Of a stretch of 64,000 nt of DNA, positions 3,863 through 50,696 are shown piece after piece. Origin of the DNA: Raillietiella orientalis (Eukaryota); NCBI GenBank assembly GCA_036172245.1, contig JAYWIR010000096.1:62001-126000 (forward strand), read 5' to 3'. Every line of letters begins with the position of its first letter. Positions within the stretch are counted from its first letter, which is position 1. The position numbers and the translations under genes were made by a program. The notes beneath the pieces are model-generated. The model ran no database searches. It was not told the origin of the DNA and saw only the letters and a program-made list of their open reading frames with translations.

Positions 3863-6800
3863 GGGGCATTTTTTGTTTAATAAACATTTACAAAGACGTG
3901 CAGTGGCTGGACCATTGCTCCTGCCACTCACGAAGAAACACAGAGCCTGCCTGGTCACCGGTTCGCAGACCGGCACGGTCCACCACGGCAGCAGCAGGAA
4001 GGGAGAAAAAAACAAAAAACAAATTAAAAACAAAAGAAAAAACTGGGAGGGTACCGGAACGGATCAAAGTTGCTGGTGGGGTCGTTGCATCCTTTACAGA
4101 ATGCCTGCAAGCTCCTGCTGCATTCTTGGATCCAGGTGGGGCCATCGCGACGCTCTGTCCAGAAACTAAGAGGCTGGCTGGATGGCACCCTGGTCGCGTT
4201 GTCCTCCCGTAGCCTTGCTCCAGGCGGTGAGGATCCCGCGTAGGTAGCACATAGCTGCTAACGAGGCCGCAGGCCGAAGGGCGTCGGCAACGAAGAGGGC
4301 TTTCAGAGCGTCACTGGGGTTGCCGCAGGGGATTCCGATGGCAGCAGCAAAGCAAAATTAAAGAAGCCGAAGGGCAACACAATCCACTAGCAGGTGGGGG
4401 AGGGACTCCCGTTCCCCACACAGGACGCAATTGGGGTCCACCGTTCCCCAGGTCCAGTATTGTTGGCGAGCGTTGCAGGGTAGTCCCCAGTGCTGCAACA
4501 GGAGAGCCGACTCCCGCCATTTTAAGGGGAGGGTGGAGGTGTTGATTAGTACCGCGAGCCACTTCAAACGTTCGATGGGAGAGTCGAGCAGCGCGCCCCA
4601 GCGAAGAAGTCAATAGAAAGGAGTACTCGGGGTGGCAGCGTCAGTCAGCTGACCCGTCTTCCACTCTCCTATCTTCTCCTTTCCGGAGATTTTTACTGTA
4701 ATCATCCACTTTGCCGCAACATCGCTGTCCAGATCTTTCATCAGGGAGGGCAGCGCAGCAGAGATGGGGGTCTTCCTGCCCACGCTCTCTTCTTTGGATC
4801 CTCCAGGATCTAGCGGAGCGGGCAACTTCTGTAACCCCAAAACAGGAACCTTCGTTCCTGCTGGGAGCGTTCCATGCCGAACTGTTCTGACGTTCGAACG
4901 GTTTCCTACAACCAGGCACTACCGTTCAAAGGGCGACAGGTGACCAATCCTGGGTATTTCCGGTACAGCGCAGCAACCCTCCGTAGCTCCAGTCCGCATC
5001 GGTTGACGCGTCGACGGAGTGCAAGAAACGACGTCAGTCCCGTCTTGCCAATGGGTTGCTTGAGAAGGAGACGTGCAGTGACGCACCAACAGGTGCACCA
5101 CAGCTCTGGAACAACTGCCGACATTTTAAACTGGAGCTGGAGCTCCAGCCGTTCCAGCGTCAGAAGGTCCAGACCACCGTCCCGACGTGGAGCGCACAAG
5201 TCCTTTAAGCGGAAACGGGCCCTCCCGTTGCCAAACAGGGCGATATGGATGGGGTACTTTCTCCGCTTTTTAGTTCTCTCTGTGGGGAAACAAACAGAAA
5301 GCAGGGGGCGAAATGGAGGAGCCGCGAACGTGTTTTAAACCGCGACCCGTTCAGGCAGGAAAGACCTGCCGCCTCGGAACGGGCCGATTGCCGTCTGTAC
5401 TTTTTGGAGGCAGCAGAACCACGCATCCGCAGGGGAGTAGTCCCCCAACGGCACACCAAAGTACTTGAAGTACCTCACCGTGAGGATCCCCAAACGGACC
5501 CAGTCCTGCTGCTTTGCTTTCGCCGCACCATCTGGTATCACGGGCGACTTCGCCCTGTTCACCGTAAATCCGGCTCCCCGATGCAGCAGGTCGAAGAACT
5601 TCTCGACCGCCGAAGCCGGGGTGGACATAGGGAGCAGCAGCAGAAGGTCATCCACGTACGCTGAAACGACCGGAGTACCAGCACAGTCGTGCGGTAGGTG
5701 CGCCAGAGTTCCCCTGTACGTTCTCAGTACCAACTCAAAGTAGGAACTGAAGAGCAAGGGGCTCAGGCTGTCTCTCTGCTGGATCCCACGCTGAACCGGA
5801 ACGCCGTGCACAGTCTGCCCGCTGAAAGTAACTTTGATAAGCGCGTCGCGCCAGTAGGTTCTCAGATAGGTTACTAATAAGGCCAAGAATCCCAAGCGTT
5901 TCATAAGCTTCATAAGGAGATTCTGGTCGACGCAAACGAATGCTGTCCTCAAGTCGACTGCGACCGCAAAGGCTCTCTCCCCCACCCGATCATCCTACCC
6001 CTTACCGGCGCACGCATCGTAATTTCGGCTGCGCACCAAGCTCCTTTCTCGTTGGAGCTCTAGCCAGGTGAAAGCGTAGAATAGGTTCGCCATGCTTCGC
6101 CCGCGACCAGCATATGCCTGTTCTGGGCTGATGAAGATGTTGGCAGCCCTTCCTAACCTCTCTGCTCACATCTTGGCTAGCAACCTGGCGTCCGCATTCA
6201 CTATTGTGATGTGACGCCAGTAGTTCATGCTCTTCAGGTCTCCTTTCTTAGCGAGGAGCCGCACTTTTGCCGAACGAAACAAGGCGGAAAAGTCACCTGT
6301 GTCGTGTATTAGCAAGGTCAGTTGCTCTACCAGGGGGTTGAGCTCAGCCGCGAAGGTTTGGTGAAACTCCGCGGGCATGCCGTCCTCTTCTGGAGCTTTG
6401 CGCTTCTAGAGCTTTCCGATGGCCGAGAGGATCTCGTCCATCGTGAAAGGCTCGTCGAGGGTCTTTCTCTCCCACTCCCGGATCGCCGGAGCGCCTTTCG
6501 GAATAAGGTGCTGTGAGACGTTCCTCTCCGGAGGTGCCCTGGCATACAGGGAGGAGTAATATCTCCGCAGCAGTCCACGGATTTAAGCGGGTGCCGAGTG
6601 CTCCTGGCCCTGATCGTCCAAGAAGCCGGCTGATCCGGACTTCCAGGCTTGCCTCTCGGGTCCCGCTTTGTATTCCGTCAGCTTGCGTATGTCCGGGGTC
6701 CTGGCGTAACGAGGGGCCTGCAGTTAGACTCGCTCGTTACGGACACCGGTCCCAAATCCCGTAGGTATGCGGTGCAGAGGGAACTGGTTGCAGAACAGCT

Positions 6801-7488
6801 AGACCGCCCGCTTGAAGCGGTCCCAATCCTTGAGGATTTGCACCCTGAAGCTCCGTATGAGCGTGCGGAGAAGTTCTGCCGCGTCCAAGAGCTTCATCCA
6901 GTTCCCTGGGAGACGCCACGCTGACGAGGGGAAGCTCCTATCGCGCGGATGGATCTCGAGGACTAGAGGGCAATGGTCGGACAGCTCGCACGGTAACCAG
7001 CCGCGCCTGCCCACGCGAAGGCACAGGTGATCGTCAAGAAACACGTGGTCAATGCTGTCTCCCATTTCCGGTGCACTGACCAACAAATTGCGGGTGTGCA
7101 CCGCCATGCACACCTTGTTGACCAGGTCACGCTCGGGATTCTGCCCATGTGGTTTCAGGCAAACGTTGAAACTGCCTGCAACCAGATGGGCATTCCGTAC
7201 GCCTGCTTCGGTCAGCTAGTCGCGCCGTAGGGCAATTCAAAACTCTTTTCTCACCCTACTATTCATCAGGTCCGCGCCACTCGCTGCGTACACGTTCCTG
7301 ACGAACAGATCGATGGAGTCGGACCACCTGAGAGTCAGCTGGTCGACCCGACCATGATCGTCGAACAGCACGTCCAAAGCCACGGCCTCGACGGTTGAAG
7401 AAAGCAGGCAGGCGACACCGCAACTTTTAGGATTCCCACACCTATACCATAGGCGCCCTCCGGAGATCCGTTCGATCTCCTGCGCTCG
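3863..7488 (-). mobile_element. Degenerate LINE 'D': ORF2 pseudogene from within the EN to the 3' UTR; 5' part removed at the AQEI codons where X1 begins
   Basis: AQEIERISGGRLW, NVYA, IDHVFLD, SDH, RGIQQRDSLSPLLF, YVDD, CVLCGERESLPHLLVDC; U-rich 3' UTR about 4005-4045. Confidence 0.88.
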
Positions 7489-7496
7489 TACAGTGC

Positions 7497-7506
7497 AGAC
7501 GTGTTT
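7497..7506 (+). promoter_or_regulatory. Conserved 5' RGACGTG motif (candidate internal promoter element), representative copy
   Basis: Lies about 10 nt from the 5' end of X, T, W and Z elements whose UTRs are otherwise dissimilar. Confidence 0.5.
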
Positions 7507-7603
7507 CCGCGTCTTTCCGCGCCAACGATCGGGCAACTTTGTGCCTGCGTTTTTGCTCGCACTTGTGTGTTCCTGTGCAATCTGCCAAGTAGCATAGTGC
7601 AAC

Positions 7604-8849
7604 ATGGCCAGTACACAGGCTAGTGTGGAGGAGCAAGCCACTGGATGCACTTCAGCTGCACTTGAAGTGGCCGCATCCTCCGTAATGGTTTCCTCGCCCC
7701 CGGTGAGGAGTTACGCCGTCGTTACCTCCCAAAGACCAGGACCCTGCGATGCGGAGTTCCAGGCATATGTGTCATCAGGATACATGCCTGCACTCCGTTA
7801 TAAGGTCAGTGGGCCACTTAACGGGAGAATCGGTCGTGAGCTCAATGATGAGCTCGTCCGGATAGGCGTTCGCGAGGAGGAACTCCTTGCCATAATGCCT
7901 GCTGGCAGGATGGAATATACGAAGATTCGGTGCAAGAACGCAGCACTTGTGCAGCGCCTTCTCCGTACGCCGTTGACCATCAATGGCATGGAAGTCCTAC
8001 CTACCGCGATGGACGACTCTTTTGTCGTTCAATTGTGCGACATCGAACCGGAAATCTCCGACCGCGATGTCGTAAGTGTGCTGGCGAAGTTCGCCAACGT
8101 GCACGCTCTGTGGAGGAGGCCAAATCCTCTAAAGGATTTCCCCTCTGTCCACATTGGACAAGCCTCCGCGAGGATCACCGTCGCGAACAGGAGTGTTGTG
8201 CCTGAGCAGCTGCAGGTGAACGGCACGGTCGTTCACCTGTGGTTCATAGGCCAGACTCGCGCGTGCGAGCAGTGCGGCAAGGATGGGTACCGAATTAAAG
8301 AGTGCCCCTCTCCAAGATGCCGCTATTGCAAAGATTCCGGGCACGAAATCAAGAAGTGCCCGGTACTTGCAAGAAAAAGAGCCGCAGCGGAAATTCGTCG
8401 GGTTCAAGAGACCACTGCACGAAAAGCCGCAGCGGCAAATAAAAATCGTCGTCCGCAAAAACTCGAAAAAAACCACGAGCGATCCGCGGATAAAAAGAAA
8501 GCATCCCCGCCCGCAACGCCCCGAAAGGGGAAAGTCACGGCGGGGAAGCCAATTAAAAGGGGGCGCGAGGGTTTGACGCGTGCCGTGCCTTCCCTCTCTG
8601 CCGAACTCGCAGGCACCTTTCCGAACCTGGAACCAGGAAATCTCCGTAACACCCTGGAGGGAAAGGTAGGAAAACAGGAAGATCGCAACAGTGCGAAGAC
8701 TTCTTGCCCCGTTCCGTTGTCCCTTTCGAGTTCCGGACAGCCCCACTGCAGCGCAGGCCCCACTGCAAAGGCTACGAAAGCCGTAAAAGGCAGCGTCGCA
8801 ACGAGCAAAAGCACGCTGCATGCAGTCGCCCCATCGCCGACTCGGCAGG
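7604..8849 (+). CDS. X1 ORF1, N-terminal part (nucleic-acid-binding protein, two zinc knuckles), interrupted by Y
   Basis: SYAVV motif, CEQCGKDGYRIKEC and CRYCKDSGHEIKKC; rejoins 14472-15130 in frame (634 aa) once Y and one TSD copy are removed. Confidence 0.88.
8834..8849 (+). repeat. Target-site duplication of Y, left copy (right copy 14456-14471)
   Basis: tcgccgactcggcagg vs tcaccgactcggcagg (15/16); the empty site is present in X3 at about 26181-26196. Confidence 0.92.
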
Positions 8850-8983
8850 TTTCCCCAAGTCCCACAAGGGGTGGGGTAAGTTTATTTTTCTATAAAAATA
8901 CAAAATTTACATTCGCACTCTCATTCACTCAATACAATTATTTTGCACTTGGGGGTCCTTGGGTTGCACTAGAGTTCTGCTTT

Positions 8984-11900
8984 TCAGGGGGAAATTCCAG
9001 CTGGATGGTCCCGGGCGTCGTCCTGGATCCTTTTAAGGATGAATCGGTACGTCCAGGCGTGGATCTTCCCGCAGTTCCTGATGCCGATTTCCCTCTTCAA
9101 GAGCCCTTGTAGTATCTCCATCGGTGGTGCGGCTCTTCTGGCTTTCCTCATTTTCCACCACCGCACAAGTATGGCGGTGATGAAGAGGGCTATGGTCGTC
9201 CTCACCATGGGATTGTAACAGGGAACATTACCATCCCCATGAAACATCCCGGCGAGGATCTCCATAACGGACTTGTTGGTAAGTCCTATGATCCTTTTCA
9301 GGATCAGCCAGTCATGCAGGAGTGTGGGACACGTCAAGACGTGAAGTCTCGTGTCATCGTCTCCACATGCTGCGCAGTCTCGGTCTTCCCGTCTTCCTGT
9401 AAAGTGCTGCAATCGGGACCCACTCTGGATTCCTCCGTGATAAAACATCAGGAGGTCATCCTGGGTGCCCGGCGGAAGGTCACTCCTCCAGAGCGTCGTG
9501 CCGATCGCTAACAGGTTGAACCGTTCACTCCCGTAGCGTTCGGTGGCTTCCTGGAGGGCACTGGTGTGACGGTCGTTTTCTTGGATAAGCCTTTGGAGGT
9601 TTGTTCTGGTTACCCTCGACCAAGCGAAGTCGTTGTGGTTGAACCACACTTCGCGGGTCCTGTGGGTAAACCTTCCTAACATCATCTCTGTATACCGAAG
9701 TAAACGTGTTTGATGTAGGTAGCCTCCTCGCCTCCACTCCTGGATTTGGTGTAGGGTAACTCTGGACCGCTGGTAGATCCAGCTTCTCGTGTCCGGCGGG
9801 ACAGGAAGCAACCAAGGGATCACCAGGATGGACTCGTCCTGCCAGAGTTCCCTGCTTCGCGGCACGATCTTGATTTGGTGCTTCCGCACCAGCCGTTGCT
9901 TCCTCGTCCAGGTGGGGTCGATTTTGTTCCATTTGCCTGCTCGGCCTAGCAGCGCAGTCATCAGGCCTTTCGAGTTGTTAAGCAACAACGCGTAGGCCCT
10001 GTGCGCCGAACACGGCCAGTCATCCCAGTGAGTGGCAATGTCCAGGTTGTTTCGCGTATCCATGATTTCCATGGAATGTGCAAGCGACTTCATCCCGGAA
10101 CCGCCTTCTTCCCTGGGACGACACAGGGGTTTCAGTCTTACTCTTGGGCGATAGTGGCCCCAGAGTGTTTTTCTTTGCAGCTTGTCGAACTCCCTAGTAG
10201 TGTCCTTGTTCATCCTCGCGAAGGCCGCCCCGAAGAGCACTTTCGGAAGGAGTACTCCGTTCCATATGTTGGCCTTTCGCTTCATCCCAAGGTCCGCTCG
10301 GGTGTACTTGGCTGCTTCCTTGGCCGTTTTCCCCAGGATTTCTTTCGACAGCAGCTTCGACGCAGAGCCGTCGCCGATGTAGACTTCCAGGTACTTGGCC
10401 GTGTCCACCGTACGGAATCCACTACCCGTTAGAGTGGAGAGATCCAGGATTCCGACGGGCAAAAGCTGGCTCTTCTGGGAATTGATTTTTAAGCCCAAGC
10501 CCTGTTCCATCTGGTCCACCACATCCAGAAACGCACGCTGTTTTTTCTCTCCCTTGATGAAGAAGAGTAGATCATCGGCGTATGCCAGATGGGTAAGACG
10601 CTGGCTATCGATGGTAATCCCGCTTAGTCGTCCGCTCTTCTCGATAAAGGACGACAACGCCTCCATATAGATGACGAACAGCATCGGACTTAGCGAGTCG
10701 CCCTGTCGGACTCCTCGTTCCATCCTGATTGCTGCCGTCTCCTGGCCGTTGATCTTGATCCGGCAGTACTGGTTCTGGAGTACCGCCCTCACGAAGTTGC
10801 TGAAGTGTTCCGGAAGCCCTAGCTTCTCCAGAACTTTCAGCAGCATCCCATGGCCGATGGAGTCGAAGGCCTTCTCCATGTCAGTGAACACCAGCACCAG
10901 GTTCTCGCCGACGTATCGACTGAGTCCAACAGTGGCCTGGGCACACTTGACATTGTCCGACATGTGTCGTCCTGGGACTGAACATGTCTGGACCGGAGAG
11001 ATCAGCCTCGACATGACCTTGCCTAAGCGGTTGGACCAGATCTTCGCCAACCACTTGGCATCGGAGTTTAGAATCGAGATTGGCCTCCATTGGGCGATCT
11101 GGGTAGAGTCGCCTCCTTTCGGCAGCAATCTCATCCGACTCTCGTAGAAGGACTGAGGTAGTCTGCCTTCTTCCCGGATGCAGAGGGTCAACTGGTGGAA
11201 CAAGCGCAGGTAGGTGTGCAGGTACCGCTGATAGTGCGTGATGGGTACACTGTCAGGGCCCGCTGCCACGTCCTTGCGAAGTTGCCCAAACGCAGTCTTC
11301 ACCTCTTCTTCCGAGAACTCCTCCTCCAGTCTGTTCCGCTGGAGGTCGTCGGTCCTCTTCTCGAGATAGCTCAAGAAGGCCTGTTGACTAGAGCGACACA
11401 GCTGTTGTCGCCTGAAGTGTTTCGTGTAATGCCTGTGATAGGCATCCACGATGTCCTCAGACGACTGTCGCTTTTGGCCGTCGTACTGGATGCAGAAGAT
11501 ATCTGTTGCCAGATTTCTCTTCTCCAGCACGCCGACTTCCCCTTTACCGACTCTCGTACTGATCGAAGTACTTTGAGAGGGAGCGATCTTGGATGTTCAG
11601 CTCCCGGTACGCCTCTTGCCTCAAGCGCCTATCCCCGAACTGCATGTTCGCAAACAGGTGTATCCTGTGTTTCAGGCAGTCCCAGTCGGCGACTCTTCGG
11701 ATTGTTGTTGCCCTCAGAATCGCCTCCAGGACAGCCTGATGTCCGGGATGGGTTTCGAACCAGGCGGGCATGCTGATGAGCGCCGCCCTGGTGCCTTGCC
11801 TCCGTCGAGGATTCTCCGTTCTTAGGGAAAACCGCACCAGGGGGTGATCGGACACCGTTGTCATAGTGTCGCGAAACCCCTGGATGCGGTTCCCAAGTTC

Positions 11901-12485
11901 GGTGCTGTGCAGGACGTGATCGATTGGCTTGTGGCTTGCTGTTCGCCAGACCAATCCAAACTCGTCGGATAGCCGTCGATACGCCGTCCTTCCTCTGGCG
12001 TCTTCCGAATGAATGATCTCATCCAAGATGTTGAGATCGCCAGCAACTATCACGACGTCCTTAGGGGCGACCTTTTGCCGGAGTGTTGCATGCAGCGCCT
12101 CCGCACAACGATGTTTTAGCCTGTGCGGCCCGTACACGTTCACCAGGATAAAGTGAACAGTCGCGGACCAGGCCAGTCGCACGCCGATGATTCGTCCGGG
12201 TTGGGGACAGAACACTTCCAGAATAGTGGGGGCTAAGTTGTTCTTTATTAGCACCGCCACACCCTTCGTGTTCCGTTCTCCTTCGTTGACGAACATCTGC
12301 CCGTTGAATCGCCGTTCTATTCGCTGGCTTATCTCGAGACCCATCCTGTGGGTCTCCTGCAGGCACACGATGTCTTGTTGTGCGATGGTCCGCACAATCC
12401 TTCTTCTTTTTCCCCGGTCGACCACACCGTTTACGTTCCAGGAGGCGATGTTTATCCTCCTGGCGGTCGATAGGGAAGAGGCCAT
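8984..12485 (-). pseudogene. Y ORF2 (APE endonuclease-RT-CCHC) with one frameshift near 11545
   Basis: SWNVNG, LQETH, NVYGP, GDLN, IDH, SDH in 11544-12485; QWRPISILN, DMEKAFD, GVRQGDSLSPMLF, YADD, KYL, CAACGDDDTRLHVLTC in 8984-11530; the two ORFs lie in different frames. Confidence 0.9.
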
Positions 12486-12498
12486 AAAAGGGGAAGAC

Positions 12499-14286
12499 CT
12501 ATTTTTTGGCCTTCCTGAGCTTCTTCTGTCTGAGAGAGCGTGCTCTTCCAGACAATGAAGAAGCAGCGGGCTTCTCGCTGCCGGCGTCACTCTCCGTACC
12601 TGTGAGGTCGGTAATTTCCGCCTCCTCCGTAGAGTGTTCCGCCTGCGCGATCAATTTTCGAGATAGCGCCTCTATTTCGACCTTGGCGCAGAAGTTCGCC
12701 TTCACGTCGAGCAGCTGTTCCTCTAACTTCTCGCGTTCAGCGACCTCCACCACCTGGTTGATGTTCTCTTGTGCAGTGCAGATCTTCTGCAAGATTTTCT
12801 CTTGCTGAGAACCGCTCTGCACCTCCATGATCTCCTCCGCCAGTGTTGCCAACTCCTCCGTAGTCTGCAGAGCTTCCTGCGACACTTTAGTGGCTTCCTG
12901 TCTCTCTTCCTTCGCGCCTTCCTGCGCTACCTCCATCTTCTCGCCTTCCTGCTCTGGTGCTTCCAGGATTTGAAGAGATCCTTGCTCCTTGACGAGCATC
13001 CTCCTCTTTCCCTTCTTTCCCACTTCTATGAAGCCGTCCGCCGACACCGGGACGGCTTCTTTCACTTTTTTCTGCCTTCCTGCCTTCTGAGGCTGTTCGG
13101 CCTCCTTGATGTTTCTCTCTCTCACGGGAGAGAGACCTCGAATCCTTCTGCAGTTTTCAAACTCCGGACAGCTCCATTTCGCATGTCCGTGTTTCTTGCA
13201 GAAGGAGCACACCTCCGGCTGCGGGCAGTTTCGGACTTGATGTCCTACTTTGCCGCAGCGGAAACAACGACACGTTGGGCAAACCCCGGCCCTGTGGCCG
13301 AACTGCTTGCACCCGGTGCAGAATACCAGTTGTTGCCGGTAACGCACATTCACTCCCTGGGATTGTTCGTCAATAACGGCCAATCCAGGGATCACCGCTC
13401 CCTCCCTCAACTTCATCTTGGCGATCATGTCGCCATAAAATATGTTTCCAGAGAAGTTCTGGAAATCAAGGTCCAGAACTTCCCCAAACTGCTCCAAGTA
13501 ATTCCACACCGCTAGTTGCGGTGTGAGGATGGAGATGCCGTTTAAAAAGACGGTTGTGTATGGCATCTCGTCAATACCACAAACCATCCGTCCTTGTATA
13601 TTGATCCCCTTCTGGATCAATCGCTCTCTAATGTTTTTACAGTCTGTGAAGACTGTGAACCCGTTGTTTGATGAAATGATCGCCTGAATGCGATCAAAGT
13701 CTATGTCCGTCTTGTCGAGGGACAAATAGACCTCCCTGATGTTATTAAATTTTATTAGCCCCGTCTTGAAGATAATGGGCTTCACGTTAGGGCCTATTTC
13801 GACTATTGGTCGGTCCACTTTTAGTACTTTTCCGCTAAGCGGCTTACCGAATTTCCTAGGTGGGTGGACACTCGCCTGTCCAGCCGCCACCGACGCATAA
13901 GAAAAGGGCTGCGACGCCGCAGCCGAACAAGATGGCGTCGCTCCCTGCACCGCGTGGACGCCCGCGGGTCCCGCCTGGGACGCCACCGCCGCGGGCGCAA
14001 ACCTCGACGTTGCCGCCGTTACCGCTGCGGGCGGCACCCTCGGCATCGCCGCCGCAGGCGCGACCTTCCTCGCCGCGGGCACGATCCTCGGCGTCGCCGC
14101 CGCGGGCACGACCTCCGCCGTCGTCGCCGCGGGCACGACCCTTGGCATCGCCGCCGCCGGCGCAGCAAAGCCCGCCGCGGGCGCGATCCTCGGCATGCCT
14201 GCTACCGTCTCGCCGTTGCCGCACGTTACCTCCATGGCTTCCATGGGGGACGACGGTCTCTCCACTCCTCTTCTAGGTGCCTGCAT
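12499..14286 (-). CDS. Y ORF1: Ala/Pro-repeat N-terminus, three CCHC zinc knuckles, acidic coiled-coil-like tail
   Basis: Open frame; SYASVA; CTGCKQFGHRAGVC, CFRCGKVGHQVRNC, CSFCKKHGHAKWSC; first ATG at 14286. Confidence 0.9.
   Translation of the reverse strand: MQAPRRGVERPSSPMEAMEVTCGNGETVAGMPRIAPAAGFAAPAAAMPRVVPAATTAEVVPAAATPRIVPAARKVAPAAAMPRVPPAAVTAATSRFAPAAVASQAGPAGVHAVQGATPSCSAAASQPFSYASVAAGQASVHPPRKFGKPLSGKVLKVDRPIVEIGPNVKPIIFKTGLIKFNNIREVYLSLDKTDIDFDRIQAIISSNNGFTVFTDCKNIRERLIQKGINIQGRMVCGIDEMPYTTVFLNGISILTPQLAVWNYLEQFGEVLDLDFQNFSGNIFYGDMIAKMKLREGAVIPGLAVIDEQSQGVNVRYRQQLVFCTGCKQFGHRAGVCPTCRCFRCGKVGHQVRNCPQPEVCSFCKKHGHAKWSCPEFENCRRIRGLSPVRERNIKEAEQPQKAGRQKKVKEAVPVSADGFIEVGKKGKRRMLVKEQGSLQILEAPEQEGEKMEVAQEGAKEERQEATKVSQEALQTTEELATLAEEIMEVQSGSQQEKILQKICTAQENINQVVEVAEREKLEEQLLDVKANFCAKVEIEALSRKLIAQAEHSTEEAEITDLTGTESDAGSEKPAASSLSGRARSLRQKKLRKAKK
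13975..14200 (-). repeat. Imperfect coding tandem repeat (about 9-10 aa unit, AAAMPRVVPA-like) in Y ORF1
   Basis: Recurrent cgccgcgggcacgac / cggcatcgccgccg units; the copy at about 19895-20100 has a shorter array. Confidence 0.75.
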
Positions 14287-14471
14287 CCTGGCAGCTGGTC
14301 TTGCTGCACGGGACCACTGCAGGTCCTTTGCCGCGATCTCCTCGCCGCTTCTTTTTTTTTGTTTCTTCTGGAAAACTTCCCCTTTCCGGGCACACACGAG
14401 CACAATGAACTGATTAAGTTGTCAAGCGCACAATACTTCGAGCCGCGGAGCAAGTTCACCGACTCGGCAGG

Positions 14472-15130
14472 AGCGGAGCGATCTGCCGACTGTCAAGAAG
14501 TTGACTCCGTTGCCGCCTTTTAAAGGCGTAGCGAAATCAACGCCATCAGAGAACGCAGCGAAAATCCCGGAGGTTTCCGCAACTACTGTCGCGGAAGCCT
14601 CCGAAAATCGCGAAGGCAAATGGAAGGTTGTGGAGAGGAGGAAAGAAAAATCTCCAAAGAAAGCTCCGCAACCTCCATCCCTGAGCTCTTCCAAAGGAAA
14701 AAGCAGTCGCGCGAATACGAAAACACGCGCGGCTTGTGACTCTTCGAAGGAAAAAGCCAACGCCTTCAACGCAAGCAAGTCCGCTTCTGTGACCGCCGAG
14801 AAGACCATTCCGGTGCAATCGGACGGATGCAAGCGCACGTCGATCGTGCGAGCATCAGACTTCCCAAAGGAGTCCGATAACGCAGCTGAACGACGCGTAA
14901 CTCGCGCGGGAGCGAGCGCCCGCAGGGCTGAAGCCCTGAGGCGTGACACACTCGCCGCGGAACGGCGAGTGCTCACCCCGGAACCCACAGGTTCTGCACC
15001 CGGGGAGGAGGACCCGATTACGTGCAGCACAGTTGAGGCCGGTGCCAACCGCGCCCTCCAGCCCGTCGTGCTGCTTACTGCCCGCTCGCCGGGTGAGGCG
15101 AGCACCACGGCCTCGCTTTCCCAGCCGTGA
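14472..15130 (+). CDS. X1 ORF1, C-terminal part
   Basis: Continues the frame of 7604 (PSPTRQ|ERSDLPTVKK); its stop overlaps the ORF2 start (TGATG). Confidence 0.85.
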
Positions 15131-18100
15131 TGAGGGCAATCGCGTCTTCTCGTCGTGTTGCCGTAACGTCTTGGAACGTCAACGGGCTCCAACACGAGGA
15201 GAAGAGGCGACTAGGGGCTGACGCTCTGCGCGCCTTCGACTTGACGCTCCTGCAGGAGATTCACAGCATCTCCGGAGAGCAGGCTGCCGAAATCGAACGG
15301 CGCGCGGGCGGAACGCTACTTTATAGGTGCGGCGTTGCACGTACGTGCGGCGTCGCTTTCCTCGTGCGAGGAACTGTGGCGGGAGCGGTGCGCAGCGTTC
15401 GTTTCGACACGGAAGGCCGAGTGGGACAGCTTGTACTCAAGTGGTCCGACTCGATCGACCTTGTCGTAACCAACGTGTACGCGCCGAGCGGTGCTGGACG
15501 ATGGGCCGAAAGGATTGAGTTCTTCGGTACCCTTCAAGGCCAGTGGCTCACTCGATCTCACCCTACTGTGGCCCATCTCATTGCGGGGGACTTAAACGTC
15601 CACCTGCTTTCCGAGAATAGATCCCACAAAAGGGAAAAGTTGCTAGCGGAAGAGATGTGCGCGTCCGTGCACGCGTGCAACTTGTTCGCTAGCGACCCTG
15701 TTATGGCAGCAACGCCGGACCACGTATACCTTGATGAACACTTGCTCTGTCGAGTGGGTCGGAGAGGTCCCGTGCCGTCCGTGCTTTCAGACCACAACAG
15801 GCTCGAGTTCGAGTTGCTCCCGCCAGGCAAGGGGCCTCCAAACTGTTTTTTGAGGATGCCGGCAGACTGGCTAAGCCACCCGGAGGCGGCTGAGCATCTT
15901 CGCCAGTACCTCCTCGGCTTTGCCATAAGTGAGCTCGAGGACTGGGACGATCTGAAAAGATCGGTCCGCGAGTTCTGCTGTCGGTTTCCCTTGCACCAGC
16001 TTCCGCGCGGCTTCGGAGAGGGCGTAGCCAACAGCAGAGATTTTCTGAAGGCCCGCTCCTTTTCCAGGCGCGCGGACGTTGGTCGATTATCCGAGTACAA
16101 GGCCAAGGCCGAGCGCCAGGTCTGGGAGTCAGGGGCGACAGTTCTGCTCGACGACCAGGACCGGGAATGCTCGGCACCAGCCGACGTGCGACGGATAGTC
16201 AGGCGCTATTACTCTTCTCTGTATGCAGAGGCACCGACGGAACGCAGCCTCTCCCGGCTGCTTCTGCCGATTGATGCACCTGTTGTAGACAAGGAGGAAC
16301 GCGCGCGTCTTGATGAGCCCTTCACGGCAGAGGAAATTTCCTCGGCCATCTCGGGGCTCAAGAGACGAAAAGCGCCAGGCGAAGATGGGCTCCTCGCGGA
16401 ATTCTTTCAGTGTTTTGCGGCGGAGCTCATCCCTCTGGTGCTCCAGCTCTCGTCGCTGATGCGAGACTCGCGCGATGTCCCCGCCTCGTTTCGCTCAGCG
16501 AAGATGCGTCTACTGCCGAAAGGCGGAGATTTGCGCCAACTAAACAACTGGCGTCCGATCACATTAGTGAATTCGGACGTCAAGTTGTTCTCGAAACTTT
16601 GGGTGGCGCGGATAAGTAGGATCGCGGAATCTTTGGTAAGTCCGGAGCAGACGTACGCTGTTCCTGGGCGGTCCATGGACGCGAATCTCTTGTTCATCCG
16701 CACATGGCTGCAATTGCAGCATCGTGTGGCGGTGGATCGTCGTGCGGAAGCGAAGCCTTCGATCTCTCACCGACGGAGGCGCGGGACGCAAAGGGAGACA
16801 CCGGGAGCCTTGGCGGTTGCAGTCGATCTGCACAAAGCTTTCGATTGCGTGAACCAAAAGCTTCTTCTTGAGCTTTTGGAACGTCTGGGTCTTCCGGCAT
16901 CCCTGTTGGCGTACTTGCGCTCCTGCTGGCGCCACGCGATTACATCCATTGTTTTCAGTGGCTGGCGCGTGTACGGCGTGCCGGTACGACGAGGAATTAG
17001 GCAGGGTGACAGCTTAAGCCCACTGCTCTTCAGCATCTATTTTGAATTGGTGCTGAAGGCTTACAGGCTGACGCTAGCCAACCTGCCGAGCTCCTGTCCA
17101 GGTACGCCCGCCGTGGCAGCCTATGCCGACGACCTGCTTCTCCTGTTGCCCATGTCCACCCCGACAGCGTCGCTTGAAGATTTCGTTGAGTTGATCCGTC
17201 GTGGTGCGGGCGTGAGCGTTAACAGGAGTAAGTGTATGGTTGTTCCGGTTGGTGCGACGTGGGAGGGGCAGTCCGACTGGATCGACCTGGGGATCCCCAC
17301 GGGCAGGTACCTCAGGTACCTTGGCGTGCCGTTGGGCGACTTCTGCATCTCAGAAGCGTGGTCGGACTGCCTTCGGAAGGCAGAGCGTGCACTTAGCCCG
17401 TTTTCAGGAGGCGAGTTCGTCTTGCCGGAACGGGCCTGCATCTGCAACACCTTCGTTGCCCCCCTCCTCCGCCCCCTGTTTTTTGTTTGTCCACCCCCCC
17501 AGGAAGTCAAAGTCTGGGCGCAGCGCCTTCTACGCAAAGCGTTGTGGGGCGCTGCAAGATCCCGTGTTAGACTTAAAGACTTGGTGGCGCCGCGTCAGGA
17601 TGCAGGCTTGGGCATCCTCGACTTAAACAGCATCGAACTGCAGGTGCAGTTTCGCATGCTACGGCTCTGTGCCAAGCTGTGGTGTACGCCGTGGTGCTTA
17701 CCCGCACGCCTTATACTGAGGCGCTGCACGGGAAGCGAGGGACTGCTTTCGTTGCTACCCCACTTTCGGCACACCAGAATAGGGTTTGGCTTTCCGCTGA
17801 GGCAGCTGTCCTCACTGCTGGAAGCCCAAAGCTGGATCTCCTGCCGCCCCATGAACATTAATGCATGGCGGCAGGAATCTTTTTCATCGTGGGCAGCTTC
17901 CGAAGGAACGCGCCCGGAAGATCTTCGACGCCTGCGACTTCTCCTCAGTCATCAAATGGACGAAGTGATGCAGGACAAGAAGTTGTCGGAACGTCTGGCC
18001 GCCACACCACTCGCCGCAGCGCTGTCTGCCATCAAAGCAAGCAACGACGGTTGCCTAGCGGCGGAATGGGAGTTCTGCAAAATAGCAAGAGTCAGTAAGC

Positions 18101-18699
18101 TCCTCGGCAGCTGGACGACAAAGGAGCTGGTGCAAGCCGCCACACCTCGGAATCGGGCGAAGGGACTGCTTCGGTGGAGCGAACATTTGAGTGTGCCCCC
18201 CGGAGAGATAGTGGTTCCCCCCGTTTGTTTGGACAGCTCCGTGTTCCCCCTTAAGTGGAAACAAGATGTGCTGCTCTTTTTACATTGTGCATTTCACTGT
18301 AATAGGCAGCGAAGTAAAGTTTCCGGGGGAGCCGCTTTGCCAAACTGTTCAAGCTGCGGAGAGATCGAGTCTTTTCCGCACCTTTTGCTGGACTGCGGTG
18401 ACCTCCTGGAACTGTGGCGAAGGCTCACTTCGGCCATCATGCCACAAGGAGGCACTGCCATTGATGTGCTGCGGCGCTTCTTCAGCAGAAATGGACTTTC
18501 GGTTGGCGCGATTGTCGCAACCATGTGTTGCGTTCGCGCCATCGTGAAGGCCCACTATGCCCTGGAGTTGTCATCGCAGCGAAGGGAGGCTCACCTGCTT
18601 GCAGCTCAATTCATGGAGAAGGCTTCGAGGTGGTCTCATCTTCGTGACAAGGTGAATGAGGACATCACCGGCATACATCGCCGGTTTACACACCTTTGA
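15130..18699 (+). CDS. X1 ORF2: intact APE endonuclease-reverse transcriptase-CCHC protein (about 1189 aa)
   Basis: SWNVNGL, LQEIH, NVYAP, GDLN, DH, SDH; NWRPITLVN, DLHKAFD, GIRQGDSLSPLLF, YADD, RYLG; CSSCGEIESFPHLLLDC. Confidence 0.95.
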   Translation: MRAIASSRRVAVTSWNVNGLQHEEKRRLGADALRAFDLTLLQEIHSISGEQAAEIERRAGGTLLYRCGVARTCGVAFLVRGTVAGAVRSVRFDTEGRVGQLVLKWSDSIDLVVTNVYAPSGAGRWAERIEFFGTLQGQWLTRSHPTVAHLIAGDLNVHLLSENRSHKREKLLAEEMCASVHACNLFASDPVMAATPDHVYLDEHLLCRVGRRGPVPSVLSDHNRLEFELLPPGKGPPNCFLRMPADWLSHPEAAEHLRQYLLGFAISELEDWDDLKRSVREFCCRFPLHQLPRGFGEGVANSRDFLKARSFSRRADVGRLSEYKAKAERQVWESGATVLLDDQDRECSAPADVRRIVRRYYSSLYAEAPTERSLSRLLLPIDAPVVDKEERARLDEPFTAEEISSAISGLKRRKAPGEDGLLAEFFQCFAAELIPLVLQLSSLMRDSRDVPASFRSAKMRLLPKGGDLRQLNNWRPITLVNSDVKLFSKLWVARISRIAESLVSPEQTYAVPGRSMDANLLFIRTWLQLQHRVAVDRRAEAKPSISHRRRRGTQRETPGALAVAVDLHKAFDCVNQKLLLELLERLGLPASLLAYLRSCWRHAITSIVFSGWRVYGVPVRRGIRQGDSLSPLLFSIYFELVLKAYRLTLANLPSSCPGTPAVAAYADDLLLLLPMSTPTASLEDFVELIRRGAGVSVNRSKCMVVPVGATWEGQSDWIDLGIPTGRYLRYLGVPLGDFCISEAWSDCLRKAERALSPFSGGEFVLPERACICNTFVAPLLRPLFFVCPPPQEVKVWAQRLLRKALWGAARSRVRLKDLVAPRQDAGLGILDLNSIELQVQFRMLRLCAKLWCTPWCLPARLILRRCTGSEGLLSLLPHFRHTRIGFGFPLRQLSSLLEAQSWISCRPMNINAWRQESFSSWAASEGTRPEDLRRLRLLLSHQMDEVMQDKKLSERLAATPLAAALSAIKASNDGCLAAEWEFCKIARVSKLLGSWTTKELVQAATPRNRAKGLLRWSEHLSVPPGEIVVPPVCLDSSVFPLKWKQDVLLFLHCAFHCNRQRSKVSGGAALPNCSSCGEIESFPHLLLDCGDLLELWRRLTSAIMPQGGTAIDVLRRFFSRNGLSVGAIVATMCCVRAIVKAHYALELSSQRREAHLLAAQFMEKASRWSHLRDKVNEDITGIHRRFTHL

Positions 18700-19025
18700 G
18701 AACGGCGTAATGTGGTTACCCCTGCGACCTCTCGCCCACCCATACCCCGTCCCCGTTCGCTCGGTAAAATTTCCGGTGCCCATGCTTTTATCCCCGTGTC
18801 TTCCAGAGCGATCCCAAAGACCCTTATCCCGTCCTTCTTATTCATTGTTTTTATTTTATTTTGGTTTCTTTGTGTTTCCCGCCCGCCCACACCGTTCAAA
18901 AAACTGTTACTCTGGCCTGCGTGCCAGCAATATTCTCTTCATTCTTGTTCAGTCGTCGGTTAGAGTTTGGTTCCCAACTGGTTTATTTTGTATAATTGCT
19001 TTTTTTTTTTGGTTATGTTATATGG

Positions 19026-19055
19026 AATAAACGCCCCGGCGTGACCGGGTGAGAA
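19026..19055 (+). terminator. AATAAA signal plus terminal GC hairpin, representative copy
   Basis: AATAAAcgcCCCGGcgtgaCCGGGtgagaa; an equivalent occurs at every intact 3' end. Confidence 0.7.
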
Positions 19056-19069
19056 ATCTCTTGCGCTCG

Positions 19070-22000
19070 TACAGTGCAGACGTGTTTTCGAATCTATCCG
19101 CGCCAACGATCGGGCAACTTTGTGCCTGCGTTTTTGCTCGCACTTGTGTGTTCCTGTGCAATCTGCCAAGTAGCATAGTGCAACATGGCCAGTACACAGG
19201 ATAGTGTGGAGGAGCAAGCCACTGGATGCACTTCAGCTGCACTTGAAGTGGCCGCATCCTCCGTAATGGTTTCCTCGCCCCCGGTGAGAAGATACGCCGC
19301 CGTTACCTCTTAAAGACCAGGACCCTGCGATGCGGAGTTCCAGGCATATGTGTCATCAGGATACATGCCTGCACTCCGTTATAAGGTCTGTGGCCCCCTT
19401 AACGGGAGAATCGGTCGTGAGCTTAATGATGAGCTCGTCCGGATCGGCGTTCGCGAGGAGGAACTCCTTGCCATAATGCCTGCTGGCAGGATGGAATATA
19501 CGAAGATTCGGTGCAAGAACGCAGCACTTATGCAGCGCCTTCTCCGTACGCCGGTTTTACAGTCTGTAAAGACTGTGAACCCGTTGTTCGATGAAATGAT
19601 CGCCTGAATGCGATCGAGGTCTATGTCCGTCTTGTCGAGGGACAAATAGACGTCCCTGATGTTATTAAATTTTATTAGCCCCGTCTTGAAGATAATGGGC
19701 TTTACGTTGGTGCTTATTTCGACTATTGGTCGGTCCACTTTTAGAACTTTTCCGCTAAGCGGCTTACCGAATTTCCTAGGTGGGTGGACACTCGCCTGTC
19801 CAGCCGCCACCGACGCATAAGAAAAGGGCTGCGACGCCGCAGACGAACAAGATGGCGTCGCTCCCTGCACCGCGTGGACGCCCGCGGGTCCCGCCTGGGA
19901 CGCCACCGCCGCGGGCGCAAATCTCGACGTTGCCGCCGTTACCGCCGCGGGCGGCACCCTCGGAATCGCCGCCGCAGGCGCGACCTTCCCCGCCGCGGGC
20001 ACGATCGTCGGCGTCGCCGCCGCGAGCACGACCTCCGCCGTCGTCGCCGCGGGCACGAGCATTGGCATCGGCGCCGCCGGCGCGATCCTCGGCATGCCTG
20101 CCGCCACCTCGCCGTTGCCGCACGTTACCTCCATGGCTTCCATGGGGGACGACGGTCTCTCCACTCCTCCTCTATGTGCCTGCATTCTGGCAGCTGGTCT
20201 TGCTGCACGGGACCAGTGTAGGTCTTTTGCCGCGATCTCCTTGCCGCTTCTTTGTTTTTAGTTTCGTCTGGAAAACTTCCCCTCTCCGGGCACACACGAG
20301 CACAATTAACTGATTACTTTGTCAAGCGCACAATACTTTGAGCCGAGGAGCAAGTTCGCCGACTAGGCAGGAGAGGAGCAATCTCCCTACTGTCAAGAAG
20401 GTGACTCCGTTGCCGCCGTTTAAAGGCGTAGCGAAATCAACGCCATCAGAGAACGCAGCGAAAATCCCGGAGGTTTCCGCAACTACTGTCGCGGAAGCCT
20501 CCGAAAATCGCGAAGGCAAATGGAAGGTTGTGGAGAGAAGGAAAGAAAAATCTCCAAATAGAGCTCCGCAACCTTCATCCCTGAGCTCTTCCAAAGGAAA
20601 AAGAAGTCGCGGGAATACGAAAACACGCGCGGCTTGTCACTCTGCCAAGGAAAAAGCCAGAGCCTTCAACGCCTTCAAGTCCGCTTCTGTGACCGCCGAG
20701 AAGACCATTCCGGTGTAATCGGACGGATGCAAGCGCACGTCGATCGTGCGAGCATCAGACTCCGCAAAGGAGTCCGATAACGCAGCTGAACGACGCGTTA
20801 CTCGCGCTGGAGCGAGCGTCCGCAGGGCTGAAGCCCTGAAGCGTGGCACACTCGCCGCGGAACGGCCAGTGCTCACCCCGGAACCCACAGGTTCTGCACC
20901 CGGGGAGGAGAACCCGATTACGTGCAGCACAGTTGAGGCCGGTGGCGACCGCGCCCTCCAGCCCGTCGTGCTGCTTACTGCCCGCTCGCCGGGTGAAGCG
21001 AGCACCACGGCCTGGCTTTCCCAGCCGTGATGAGGGCAATCGCGTCTTCTCGTCGTGTTGCCGTAACGTCTTGGAACGTCAACGGGCTCCAACACGAGGA
21101 GAAGAGGCGACTAGTGGCTGACGCTCTGCGCGCCTTCGACTTGACGCTCTTGCAGGAGATTCACAGCATCTCCGGAGAGCAGGCTGCCGAAATCGAACGG
21201 CACGCGGGCGGAACGCTAATTTATAGGTGCGACGTTGCACGTACGTGCGGCGTCGCTTTCCTCGTGCGAGGAACTTTGGCGGGAGCGGTGCGCAGCGTTC
21301 GTTTCGACACGGAAGACCGAGTGGGAGAGCTTGTACTCAAGTGGTCCGACTCGATCGACCTTGTCGTAACCAACGTGTACGCGCCGACCGGTGCTGGACG
21401 ATGGGCCGAGAGGATAGAGTTCTTCGGTACCATACAAAGCCAGTGGCTCACTCGATCTCACCCTACTGTGGCCCATCTTATTGCGGGGGACTTTAAGGTC
21501 CACCTGCTTTCCGAGAATAGATCCCACAAAAGGGAATAGTTGCTAGCGGAAGAGATGTGCGCGTCCGTGCACGCGTGCAACTTGTTCGCTAGCGACCCTG
21601 TTATGGCAGCAACGCCGAACCACGTATACCTTGATGAACACTTGCTCTGTCGAGTGGGTCGGAGAGGTCCCGTGCCGTCCGTTCTTTCAGACCACAACAG
21701 GCTCGAGTTCGAGTTGCTGTCGCCAGGCAAGGGGCCTCCAAACTGTTTTTGGAGGATGACGGCAGACTGACTAAGCCACCCGGATGCGGCTGAGCATCTT
21801 AGCCAGTACCTCCTCGGCTTTGCCTCAAGTGAGCTCGAGGACTGGGACGATCTAAAAAGATCGGTCAGCGAGTTCTGCTGCCGTTTTCCCTCGCACCAGC
21901 TACCGCGCGACTTCGGAAAGAACGTAGCCAACAGCAGAGGTTTTCTGCAGGCGCGCGGACGTTGGTCGATTATTGGAGTACAAGTCCAAGTCCGAGCGCC

Positions 22001-24938: not shown

Positions 24939-24952
24939 ATCTCTTGCGCTCG

Positions 24953-27226
24953 CACAGTGCAGACGTGCTTCCGCGTCCATCTGCGCCAACCATCGGGCAA
25001 CTTTGTGCCTGCGTTTTCCCTCGCACTTGTGTGTTTCTGTGCAATCTGCCATGTAGCATAGTGGAACATGGCCAGTACACAGGATAGTGTGGAGGAACAA
25101 GTCACTGGATGCACTTCAGCTGCACTCTAAGCGGCCGCATCCACCGTAATGGCTTCCTCGCCCCCAGTAAGGAGTTATGTCGCTGTTACCTTTCAAACAC
25201 CAGGACCCTGCGATGCGGAATTCTAGGCATATTTGTCATCAGAGTACATGGCTGCACTCCGTTCTAAGGTCAGTGGGATCCTTAACGGGAGAATCGGTCG
25301 TGAGCTCAATGATGAGCTCGTCCCGATCGGCGTTCGCGAGGAGGAACTGCTTGCCATAATGCCTGCTGGCAGGATGGAATATACGAAGATTCGGTGCAAG
25401 AACGCAGCACTTGTGCAGCGCCTTCTCCGTACACCGTTGACCATCAATGGCAAGGAAGTCCTATCTACCGCGATGGACGACTCTTTTGTCGTTCAATTTT
25501 GCGATCACCTGTCCGCGCGGATCACCGCCACGAACAGGCGTGTTCTGCGTGAGCAGCTGCAGGTGAACGGCTCGATCGTTCACCTGTGGTTCATATGCCA
25601 GACTCGCGCGTGCGACCAGTGCGGCAAAGATGGGCACCGAATTAAAGAGTGCTTCTCTCCAAGATGCCGCTATTGCAAAGATTCCGGGCACGACATTAAA
25701 AAGTGCCCGGTACTTGCAAGAAAAAGAGCCGCAGGGGAAATTCGTCGGGTTTAAAAGACCACTGCAAGAAAAGCCACAGCGGAAAATAAAAAACGTCGTC
25801 CGCAAAAACTCGGAAAAAACAACGAGCGATCCGCGGATGAAAAGAAAGCTTCCCCGCCCGCAACGCCCCGGAAGGGGAAAGTCACGGTGGGGAAGCCAAT
25901 TAAAAAGGGGCGCGAGGGTTTGACGCGTAACGTGCCCTCTCTCCCTTCCGAACTCGCAGGCATTTCTTCGAGCCAGGAACCAGGAAATCTCTCTAACACA
26001 TTGGAGGCAAAGGTAGGAAAACACGAAGATCGCAACAGTGCGAAGACTTCTTGCCGCGTTCCGTTGTCCCTTCCGAGTTCAGGACAGCCCAACTGCAGCG
26101 CGGGCCCCTCTGCAAAGGCTACGAAAGCCGTAAAAAGCAGCCTCGCGACAAGCAAAAGCACGCTACATGCAGTCGCCCCATCGCCGATACGGCAGTAGAG
26201 GAGCAATCTCCCGACTGCCAAGAAGGTGACTCGGTTGCCGCCTGTTAAAAGCTTAGCGAAAGCAACGCTTCCAGAGAAGGCAGCGAAAATCCGGGAGGTT
26301 TCCGGAAGTACTCTTCGGAAGCCTTTGAAAATCGCGAAGGCGTATGGAAGGTTGTGGAGAGGAGGAAAAAAAAATCTCCAAAAAAAGCTTCGTAACATTC
26401 ATCCCTGAGCTCTTTCAAAGGAAAAAGCCGTCGCGCGAATACGAAAGGACGCGCGGGTTGTGCCTCTTCCCAGGAAAAAGGGAGCGCCTTGAACACGTGC
26501 ATGTCCGCTACTGTGACCGCCGAGAAGACCATTGCTATGCTATCGGACGGATGCAAGCGCACGTCGTTCGTGCGAGCATCAGACTCCGTAAAGGAGTCCG
26601 ATAGCGCCGTTGAACGACGCGTTACTCGCGCGGGAGCGAGCGCCCGCAGGTCTGAAGATCTCAGGCGTGAAACACTCGCCGCGAAACGGCGAGTGCTCAC
26701 CCCGGAACCCACAGATTCTGCAGCCGGTTAGGATCAGTCGATTACGTGCGACACAGTTTTGGCCGGTGACGACCGCGCTTTTCAGCCCGTCATGCCGCTT
26801 ACTGCCCGCTCGCCGGGTGAGGCGAGTACCACGGCCTCGCTTTCCCAGCCCTAATGAGGGCAATCGCCTCTTCTTGTCGTGTTGTAGTGACGTCTTGGAA
26901 CGCCAAAGGCCTGCAACACTTGGACAAGAGGCGACTAGTGTCTCACGCTCTGCGCGCCTTCGACTTGACTCTCCAGCAGGAGATTCACAGCATCTCCGAA
27001 GAGCAGGCTGCCGAAATCGAACGATGCGCTAACGGAACGCTACTTCATAGGTGCGGCGTTGCACGTACGTGCAGCGTCGCTTTTCTCTTGCGAGGTACTT
27101 TGGCGGGAGCGCTGCGCAGCGTTCGTTTCGACACGAAAGGACGAGTGGGACAGCTTGTACTCAAGTGGTCCGACTCGATTCACCTTGTCGTAACCAACGT
27201 GTACGCGCCGAGCGGTGCTGGACGGC
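24953..27226 (+). mobile_element. Third tandem X copy (X3): no Y insertion, degenerate ORF1, truncated within the EN
   Basis: Colinear with the X1 5' UTR and ORF1; TAATG at 26852; stops after NVYAPSGAGR. Confidence 0.9.
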
Positions 27227-28134: not shown

Positions 28135-28149
28135 GGGGGGTCGGCTGTG

Positions 28150-30484: not shown

Positions 30485-30485
30485 A

Positions 30486-44082: not shown

Positions 44083-44393
44083 CCCCAAGGCTGGCAAGAA
44101 GGCCGTCAGACGTCCGGCTTCTTCTCAGGACTCAACCACTTGCGACCACGAGGTGGAGGCCGGAAACATAGCGCCTCAGGAGGCGGCGAACGGCGGACGC
44201 AATTGTTGTGCGCTCCGTGGATAAGGAGTTTTTCTTTCCTGGTGTTTCGTGTATGTTTCGCGGCCGTTGACAGGCAGAAATGCCTGTGAACGCCGCAGTT
44301 TAAGGTAAGGGAGGCGGGAAGACCGCGTCTCCCAAGCCAAAGGAAATGGGATCACGCCCCACCACTTCTTCTGAACCCGCCATCACGGCGAGG
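44083..44393 (+). other. Short ORF1 fragment (KAGKKAVRRPA) followed by a probable LINE 5'-UTR/ORF1-start fragment
   Basis: 44083-44167 matches 59495-59580; next come GGACGC, a T-rich leader and an ATG at about 44280. Confidence 0.55.
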
Positions 44394-50685: not shown

Positions 50686-50696
50686 GGGATTCGGCA

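Follow-up and report, generated by a model that had tools for sequence, protein, structure and literature searches.

Can a retrotransposon home to a handful of codons within the genes of other retrotransposons? This question is raised by a stretch of 64,000 nucleotides from the Raillietiella orientalis assembly GCA_036172245.1 (contig JAYWIR010000096.1, positions 62,001 to 126,000 of the forward strand), which we refer to in its entirety as the window. The window, with a GC content of ~0.53-0.62, is a mosaic on both strands of retrotransposons without long terminal repeats (non-LTR), also known as long interspersed nuclear elements (LINEs). One of these, which we call family X, is accompanied at its junctions by a 12-nt word that in two other LINEs of the window, D and H, encodes the residues A-Q-E-I of the endonuclease (EN). 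We propose, with a probability of roughly 0.6, that X is a sequence-specific LINE that integrates in antisense orientation at the AQEI codons of other LINEs' endonuclease genes.

Results

The AQEI word at the ends of X

In its degenerate 11-letter form, GCGCARGAGAT, the word matches four times on the two strands of the window, where 0.05 matches are expected and where a count of four was reached in none of 100 shuffles, and all four occurrences lie at X ends (Table 1). The sequence-only reading of this DNA had reported that the 5′ end of the first copy, X1, directly follows the antisense AQEI word of D, that the 3′ end of X4 adjoins the same word in the EN gene of H, and that one word separates X1 from X2 and X2 from X3. 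All three observations hold. Within the tandem array, each word is flanked by an X 3′ end (..CGGGTGAGAA) and then by the next X 5′ end, and the word follows all three X 3′ ends seen in the window. Beyond the word, the flanks of the four X junctions have nothing in common. The word of D contains CAG where both inner words and the word of H contain CAA.

In both hosts, the word forms part of a longer reading frame. The minus strand of D, read from 7486 downwards, is ..AQEIERISGGRLWY.., in frame A-Q-E-I-E-R-I-S-G-G-R-L-W-Y, and the alignment of D to the second open reading frame (ORF2) of X begins precisely at the word (residue 62). The plus strand of H up to 60039 is ..LLQEIHVICAEQAQEI, that is ..L-L-Q-E-I-H-V-I-C-A-E-Q-A-Q-E-I, stopping at residue 66. 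Since the host frame reads through the word in D as well as in H, the word is native endonuclease sequence in both, and at both host junctions the host lies antisense to X. H represents a separate family, with at most 58% amino acid identity to the other eight EN N-termini. The further claim that the sequence neighboring the word in H differs from that in D could not be upheld: D is preserved only downstream of the word and H only upstream of it; the halves never overlap, and a direct comparison of the two hosts is not possible. A plain inversion of the missing part of X3, considered as an origin of H and X4, was ruled out by the overlap of X4 and X3 in ORF2 residues 1-135.

In D the word adjoins X on the left, in H on the right, and tandem units have a single copy of it between them, just as a 12-bp target-site duplication would be arranged. 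The same length, 12 bp, is seen in the duplication that Y, a LINE of the same group, has made in X1. No single X insertion has both of its flanks visible in the window; the two-flank case is seen for another family, Z, with a 10-nt word. Twelve EN copies cover the AQEI site. Both carriers of the word are occupied, and all ten copies without the 11-letter word are unoccupied; there is some circularity in this count, as the occupied sites served to define the word.

Table 1. Coordinates of X, its hosts and the other features discussed (positions count from the first letter of the window; a slash separates the parts of a junction).
Feature	Position	Strand	Description
Host LINE D	4000-7486 (left end approximate)	-	ORF2 residues ~62-1193 and 3′ untranslated region (UTR); tblastn with X ORF2, translation; cut at the AQEI codons by X1
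Word at D/X1	7475-7486	-	ATCTCCTGCGCT before the X1 5′ end; AGCGCAGGAGAT as A-Q-E-I codons of D; left-hand repeat of the putative 12-bp target-site duplication
D/X1 junction, X orientation			..CCGTTCG / ATCTCCTGCGCT / CGTACAG..
X1, 5′ part	7487-8848	+	Exact 5′ end CGTACAGTGC, 5′ UTR, most of ORF1; sequence comparison
LINE Y	8849-14458	-	Unrelated, within X1 ORF1
X1, 3′ part	14459-19055	+	ORF2 frame open 15097-18699; 3′ end ..CGGGTGAGAA, no poly(A)
X codons homologous to the word	15283-15294 (X1)	+	GCT GCC GAA ATC (AAEI), 4/4 copies
One-mismatch word in X EN, sense strand	15645-15656; 21545-21556; 63423-63434	+; +; -	AGCGGAAGAGAT; unoccupied
Word between X1 and X2	19056-19067	-	ATCTCTTGCGCT in X orientation, AGCGCAAGAGAT on minus
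X2	19068-24938	+	Contains first ~820 nt of Y (19555-20355)
Word between X2 and X3	24939-24950	-	ATCTCTTGCGCT in X orientation, AGCGCAAGAGAT on minus
X1/X2 and X2/X3 junctions, X orientation			..GGGTGAGAA / ATCTCTTGCGCT / CG(T/C)ACAG..
X3	24951-27225	+	Without Y; stops at ORF2 residue 135
F/E tandem junction word	28135-28148	+	GGGGGGTCGGCTGT; F and E on minus
Z-like element H′	30485-33425	-	Ends (3′) in host G, at the GFG word also found at Z (30475-30484)
GFG word of H′ itself	33416-33425		Filled by element I, whose 5′ end begins at 33426
V junctions	44078-44165; 59490-59577		Second is a 32-nt remnant; surroundings rearranged
Z host piece M	44403-45030		Ends ..L-P-P-G-F-G
Z1 and Z2	45031-50686 and 50697-56473 (whole 45021-56483)	-	Tandem, antisense in one host at PPGFG codons
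Z word GGWTTCGGCR (10 nt)	45021-45030; 50687-50696; 56474-56483		Left flank; between units; right flank
Z host piece O	56474-~59461		Starts G-F-G-K-G-L-R-N..
Host LINE H	59494-60039	+	ORF1 tail and endonuclease residues 1-66; ends in the word
Word in H	60028-60039	+	AGCGCAAGAGAT, adjoining the reverse-complemented X4 3′ end at 60040
X4/H junction, X orientation			..GGGTGAGAA / ATCTCTTGCGCT / TGTTCTGCAC..
X4	60040-64000	-	3′ end to ORF2 residue 1; continues past the window edge
Shared LINE 3′ ends	19016-19055; 24900-24938; 28149-28190; 30485-30530; 45031-45075; 50697-50740; 60040-60080
Shared 5′ motif	7487-7515; 33426-33455; on minus 28110-28134, 50660-50686, 56440-56473

Family X and the history of its array

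The X unit measures 5883 bp, starts with CGTACAGTGC and ends with ..AATAAACGCCCCGGCGTGACCGGGTGAGAA, without poly(A). An L1-like non-LTR retrotransposon, X has an ORF1 of the CCHC type and an ORF2 that combines an endonuclease of the apurinic/apyrimidinic type (APE) with a reverse transcriptase (RT). The ORF2 product (1200 amino acids) matches the Pfam domains RVT_1 (4.1e-21) and Exo_endo_phos (3.8e-08), and its closest solved structure is that of human LINE-1 ORF2p (1e-44). A search of a protein collection returned 33 matches at E ≤ 1e-10, whose names are missing or generic; with a top identity of merely 31%, that collection holds no close copies of X. A look-up in the Atlas likewise led to generic RT/EN clusters. 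The ends of X are exact to the letter at all three visible 5′ ends, which are full-length, and at all three visible 3′ ends. X4 is 92% identical to X1.

The insertion of Y allows the later history of the array to be followed. In X1, Y has a perfect 12-bp copy of CCGACTCGGCAG on each side (8837-8848 and 14459-14470) as its duplication, and the corresponding empty site is retained in X3 (26150-26230). X2 has the same Y 5′ junction as X1 (19531-20355), but has undergone a 5.66-kb deletion that brings X position 7972 and Y position 13635 together. Because this junction is common to X1 and X2, the two arose by duplication at the DNA level after the arrival of Y, not by two retrotranspositions. The Y junction in X1 and X2, the deletion in X2 and the empty site in X3 show that the number of units changed later at the DNA level, and unequal exchange has taken place within the X array. 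Neither the right end of the array nor the upstream half of D is contained in the window; one deletion may account for the loss of this half of D as well as of the remainder of X3 and the right-hand word. The end of X3 (27225) lies within ~20 nt of the truncated ORF1 of E, an element on the minus strand (27225-27247).

The homologous site in X

At the position homologous to the word, the EN gene of X reads AAEI in all four copies, as the sequence-only reading had stated, and by eye 6 of its 12 letters differ from the word. The conclusion drawn there, that X does not carry its own target, is true of this homologous position; however, the gene has a copy of the word with a single mismatch, AGCGGAAGAGAT, elsewhere on its sense strand.

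Does X thereby avoid itself? None of the four X copies in the window is interrupted at the AQEI-homologous site, as would be expected if AAEI were an adaptation protecting X from its own insertion, but four copies, two of which are duplicates, are too few to show avoidance. The related element J reads AANL, also without Q, at the same site, so that AAEI may simply be inherited or ancestral. Moreover, the exact target word of Z is kept in all three full Z-type copies (36154, 47951, 53615), and the Z-like H′ has been hit by the Z-like element I, indicating that self-targeting is tolerated among these lineages. Self-avoidance as an adaptation is thus unsupported, and we consider it doubtful.

Junction words of other families

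Two units of family Z stand in tandem, antisense in one host LINE that is split at the PPGFG linker between EN and RT, with the 10-nt word on either side and between the units. A second insertion of this kind, H′, lies in host G. Identity between hosts G and M reaches 95.3% over 634 nt, whereas the guests H′ and Z1 share just 76.1% identity over 2848 nt. Hosts that are ~95% alike with guests that are 76% alike exclude the duplication of a composite and demonstrate independent Z hits at one site. The ratio of nonsynonymous to synonymous substitution rates (Ka/Ks) is 0.30-0.38 for the Z guests, compared to 0.59-0.74 in neutrally decaying pairs. Element I (33416-39132) joins H′ through a 5′ junction of the canonical Z type, but its W-type 3′ tail, GTGGCAAA, adjoins another host, J, at ORF2 residue ~364; its 5′ two-thirds are Z-like (87%) and its 3′ third is O-like (78%). 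Recombination or a rearrangement of the locus is the probable explanation.

The tandem junction of F and E contains GGGGGGTCGGCTGT, an exact 14-mer of the sense 'GGRLY' codons in the EN gene of Z2 (54308-54321, minus strand), and the window contains just these two occurrences. The distance from AQEI to the GGRLY site, which lies downstream, is ~8 codons, and F and E run antisense to the word. This junction word suggests that F/E could be a further family, with its target at GGRLY.

The 3′ tail of family V, GGGTGTAAA, twice adjoins the ORF1-tail sequence ..AAGGCTGGCAAGAAGGCCGT..CGTCCGGC.. in sense orientation (44082, 59494). The homologous V site in element G (~29225) is empty, and V may be a site-specific family aimed at ORF1. 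Not all families of the window show such behavior. Y is not site-specific, as its two copies have unrelated 3′ flanks (the second Y 3′ end lies at 1-448), and the flanks of the two W-type 3′ ends (39123, 59461) are unrelated as well.

Common features of the LINE mosaic

LINEs are nested throughout the window, and tandem units are found in X, Z and F/E. The products of the long frames are of two kinds, ORF1 proteins that bear CCHC knuckles and ORF2 proteins that unite an APE-type EN and an RT. All LINE families here have a common 3′ end, AATAAACGCCCCGG(5-6 nt)CCGGGTG, followed by a family-specific tail of 3-5 nt and lacking poly(A). Although this 3′ motif allows a short hairpin to be drawn, its folding energy does not stand out above shuffles (z -1.5 to +0.35, 4/4 folds). 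The 5′ ends of X, Z, I and E have in common a motif centered on GACGTG or GAGGTG, ..G(C/T)(A/G)GACGTGT(T/A)TT(C/T)C.., ~11-14 nt from the first base, which may be a promoter or initiator element.

Discussion

A proposed mechanism for repeated insertion

From the geometry of the junctions, the X endonuclease would nick the sense strand of the host just after 5′-AGCGCARGAGAT-3′, the A-Q-E-I codons. Reverse transcription would then be primed at the nick and start from the X 3′ end, leaving X antisense to its host, an orientation that is itself observed. If the other strand were cut 12 bp away, the word would be duplicated on both sides of X. With the target carried by the duplicated word, every insertion would provide two fresh targets, and a second insertion would generate a head-to-tail pair with a single word in between, after which unequal exchange would alter the number of units. 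As the duplicated word is at the same time the target, arrays would be built by repeated insertion. We infer that the word is read by the endonuclease and not by pairing with a read-through RNA tail.

Weighing the evidence

Several observations weigh against site-specific integration of X. The host junctions number only two, with the X 5′ side alone visible in D and the X 3′ side alone in H. The pair X1 and X4 has a Ka/Ks of 0.62, not below the 0.59 of the DNA duplicates X1 and X2; with values so alike, it is not provable that the D/X1 and H/X4 events were separate, and D and H might each represent one half of a single type of host, or even of a single ancestral locus that was later duplicated and inverted. 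Nor are the tandem junctions of X independent observations, X1 and X2 being duplicates. Re-insertion predicts identical words, so the CAG and CAA versions require a substitution to be assumed. The one-mismatch word in the X EN gene is unoccupied in all three copies, which fits high specificity and no specificity equally well. Lastly, one read-derived Logan contig leaves the X 3′ end at 24940 into 17 letters that are not the word. One of three Logan runs contains the stretch, in contigs that are short and broken at repeat ends, and among the 10 loose ends listed (of 166) this is the one at an X end. The reverse complement of the 17-letter flank has six matches with at most three mismatches, where 0.30 are expected, all of them antisense at the EN 'DFNLRLL' codons; the flank corresponds to the sense strand of Z-like EN genes, ~100 codons from AQEI and in the opposite orientation. 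Thus, the 3′ end of at least one X or X-like copy has a different neighbor. Either X lands elsewhere at times, or another 5′-truncated LINE adjoins that X copy. The same loose end was also considered as a third host, with 'QAEI', and rejected on its identity with the sense strand of the DFNLRLL codons. Exact-pattern scans of metagenome contigs with the X 3′ end and with the 3′ motif shared by the families returned 0 loci, and a protein search with the read-through peptide spanning the D/X1 junction yielded no candidate.

Could the junctions have arisen without any target preference? A single ancestral X insertion with a non-specific 12-bp duplication might have been followed by DNA-level events only, in which unequal exchange built the array and segmental duplication with inversion put its right end at 59.5-64 kb; H would then be a copy of the missing upstream half of D. 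In keeping with this, X1 and X2 are demonstrably DNA duplicates, the divergence of the X copies looks neutral (Ka/Ks 0.58-0.62), D and H retain opposite halves of an endonuclease gene, and rearranged fragments of LINEs abound in the window, an example being element I with its 5′ and 3′ flanks from different hosts. However, the first tandem pair would have to arise from a mere 12 bp of homology, and the short LINE-coding words at tandem or host junctions of three further families within the same 64 kb would go unexplained, with segmental duplication excluded in the case of Z by its 95% hosts and 76% guests. We hold this origin, the main rival to site-specific homing, to be unlikely. Much less credible still is a loose preference of X, be it for a short nick motif (e.g. 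GARAT^C) or for LINE-rich chromatin, with the canonical junctions being a coincidence of the small sample. The non-canonical Logan flank, which is also in a LINE EN gene but at another motif and in sense orientation, would agree with it, as would the two unrelated 3′ flanks of Y, a member of the same superfamily. Yet all four matches of the 11-mer across the 64 kb coincide with X ends, and, if D/X1 and H/X4 are independent, both insertions struck the same nucleotide and strand of a ~6-kb element, for which we roughly estimate a chance of ~1 in 10^4.

Homing might also be real but guided by RNA, such that the 12-nt tail of a read-through X transcript pairs with the nicked strand and sets the start of reverse transcription. 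R1- and R2-type elements use downstream target sequence, and the word after each visible X 3′ end would be carried by a read-through RNA; the inner words and the word of H are identical (..CAA..), with D differing. Against this, the read contigs come from DNA-type runs only, and priming from the primer strand would still predict a host-derived 3′ word, so that the CAG/CAA difference is not better explained. RNA guidance thus seems improbable to us. The similar behavior of other families in the window raises the prior for a site choice by X, and antisense targeting of AQEI codons, as put forward in the sequence-only reading, stands as the best interpretation, albeit from a narrow base of two host and two tandem junctions.

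A possible guild of LINEs and its significance

The distribution of junction words makes a wider interpretation enticing, which we offer tentatively, as possible rather than probable. The island could be a guild of related L1-like lineages that home to different conserved codon blocks, with X at AQEI, F/E at GGRLY, Z at PPGFG and possibly V at the ORF1 tail, in which LINEs serve one another as a safe harbor. With each hit duplicating and so restoring its target, such a cluster would be self-renewing, as has been proposed for the possibly centromeric clusters of the Zepp type. The lineages would then constitute a natural series of specificity shifts in APE endonucleases, and the loss of AQEI in X would be part of an arms race.

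Known targets of specific LINEs are mostly genes for ribosomal RNA, small nuclear RNA and transfer RNA, microsatellites and telomeres, and Tx1L hits a DNA transposon. Sequence-specific LINEs are rare natural models for the programmable, endonuclease-guided insertion of long DNA. In this island, several closely related lineages of the APE type seem to have distinct targets of 10-14 nt in each other's coding sequences, which would provide a compact comparative set for the endonuclease residues that set target choice. It would also provide a sequence-level mechanism for the nucleation and growth of LINE-only, Zepp-like islands that leave host genes undamaged, and explain why such elements pile up in one place. 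Here, transposons would parasitize transposons, with the target motifs kept by the purifying selection that acts on the victims themselves.

Comparison with known site-specific LINEs

Finally, we would like to place X into the context of other LINEs with defined or clustered insertion sites. Specific APE-type LINEs are established, among them R1Bm in 28S ribosomal DNA (rDNA) and Tx1L in the transposon Tx1D (PMC1950540), and transposons are among the listed targets of specific non-LTR elements in an account that covers the Tx1 clade (PMC4640811). Our likening of X to R1 and Tx1 concerns behavior and should be taken as an analogy. Like R1 of Drosophila, X is of the APE type, would use one specific site and has a short duplicated piece of the target between its tandem units. 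In R1 arrays, this arrangement has been explained by double insertion followed by unequal exchange (PMC5932611), and the target duplication that this model places in every tandem junction is present at both inner junctions of X and at that of Z. However, the target of R1 is 28S rDNA and its spacer is 33 nt long, whereas the spacer of X is 12 nt and its target a transposon gene. Like Tx1L of Xenopus, an APE-type element of the L1 group, X has its site in another transposable element. The host of Tx1L is the DNA transposon Tx1D, in contrast to the coding sequence of a fellow LINE, and the accessible text on Tx1L (PMC1950540, PMC4640811) gave no description of sister families that each have a LINE target of their own.

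The clusters of Zepp and ZeppL in green algae are reminiscent of this island in another respect: they, too, are L1-type LINEs that enter existing LINE copies and thereby form local nested or tandem clusters (PMC8226300, PMC9940879, PMC11005252, 10.1101/2025.03.28.645958). These elements are said to aim at existing copies and to form tandem arrays that consist mostly of 3′ ends (PMC8226300). Zepp is described as hitting its own copies, of which mostly 5′-truncated 3′ ends are left, whereas X hits other families and is full-length at all three visible 5′ ends. Targeting of the own family is thus absent from X, whose four EN copies are intact and whose hosts D and H belong to other families, but it is found in Z. 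A target word at the codon level, a fixed antisense orientation and a fixed duplication were not found stated for Zepp and ZeppL in the accessible parts of these sources, three of which (PMC9940879, PMC11005252, 10.1101/2025.03.28.645958) yielded no target at the sequence level. The Cnl1 arrays of Cryptococcus are subtelomeric and have no defined site (10.1101/2021.08.11.455996). Our literature search found no description of LINE families that target codons within the endonuclease genes of other LINEs, which does not prove their absence. Against this background, the novelty would lie in a combination of features: targets defined at the level of codons within the genes of fellow LINEs, an orientation that is always antisense, units of full length, and several sister lineages that differ in their targets.

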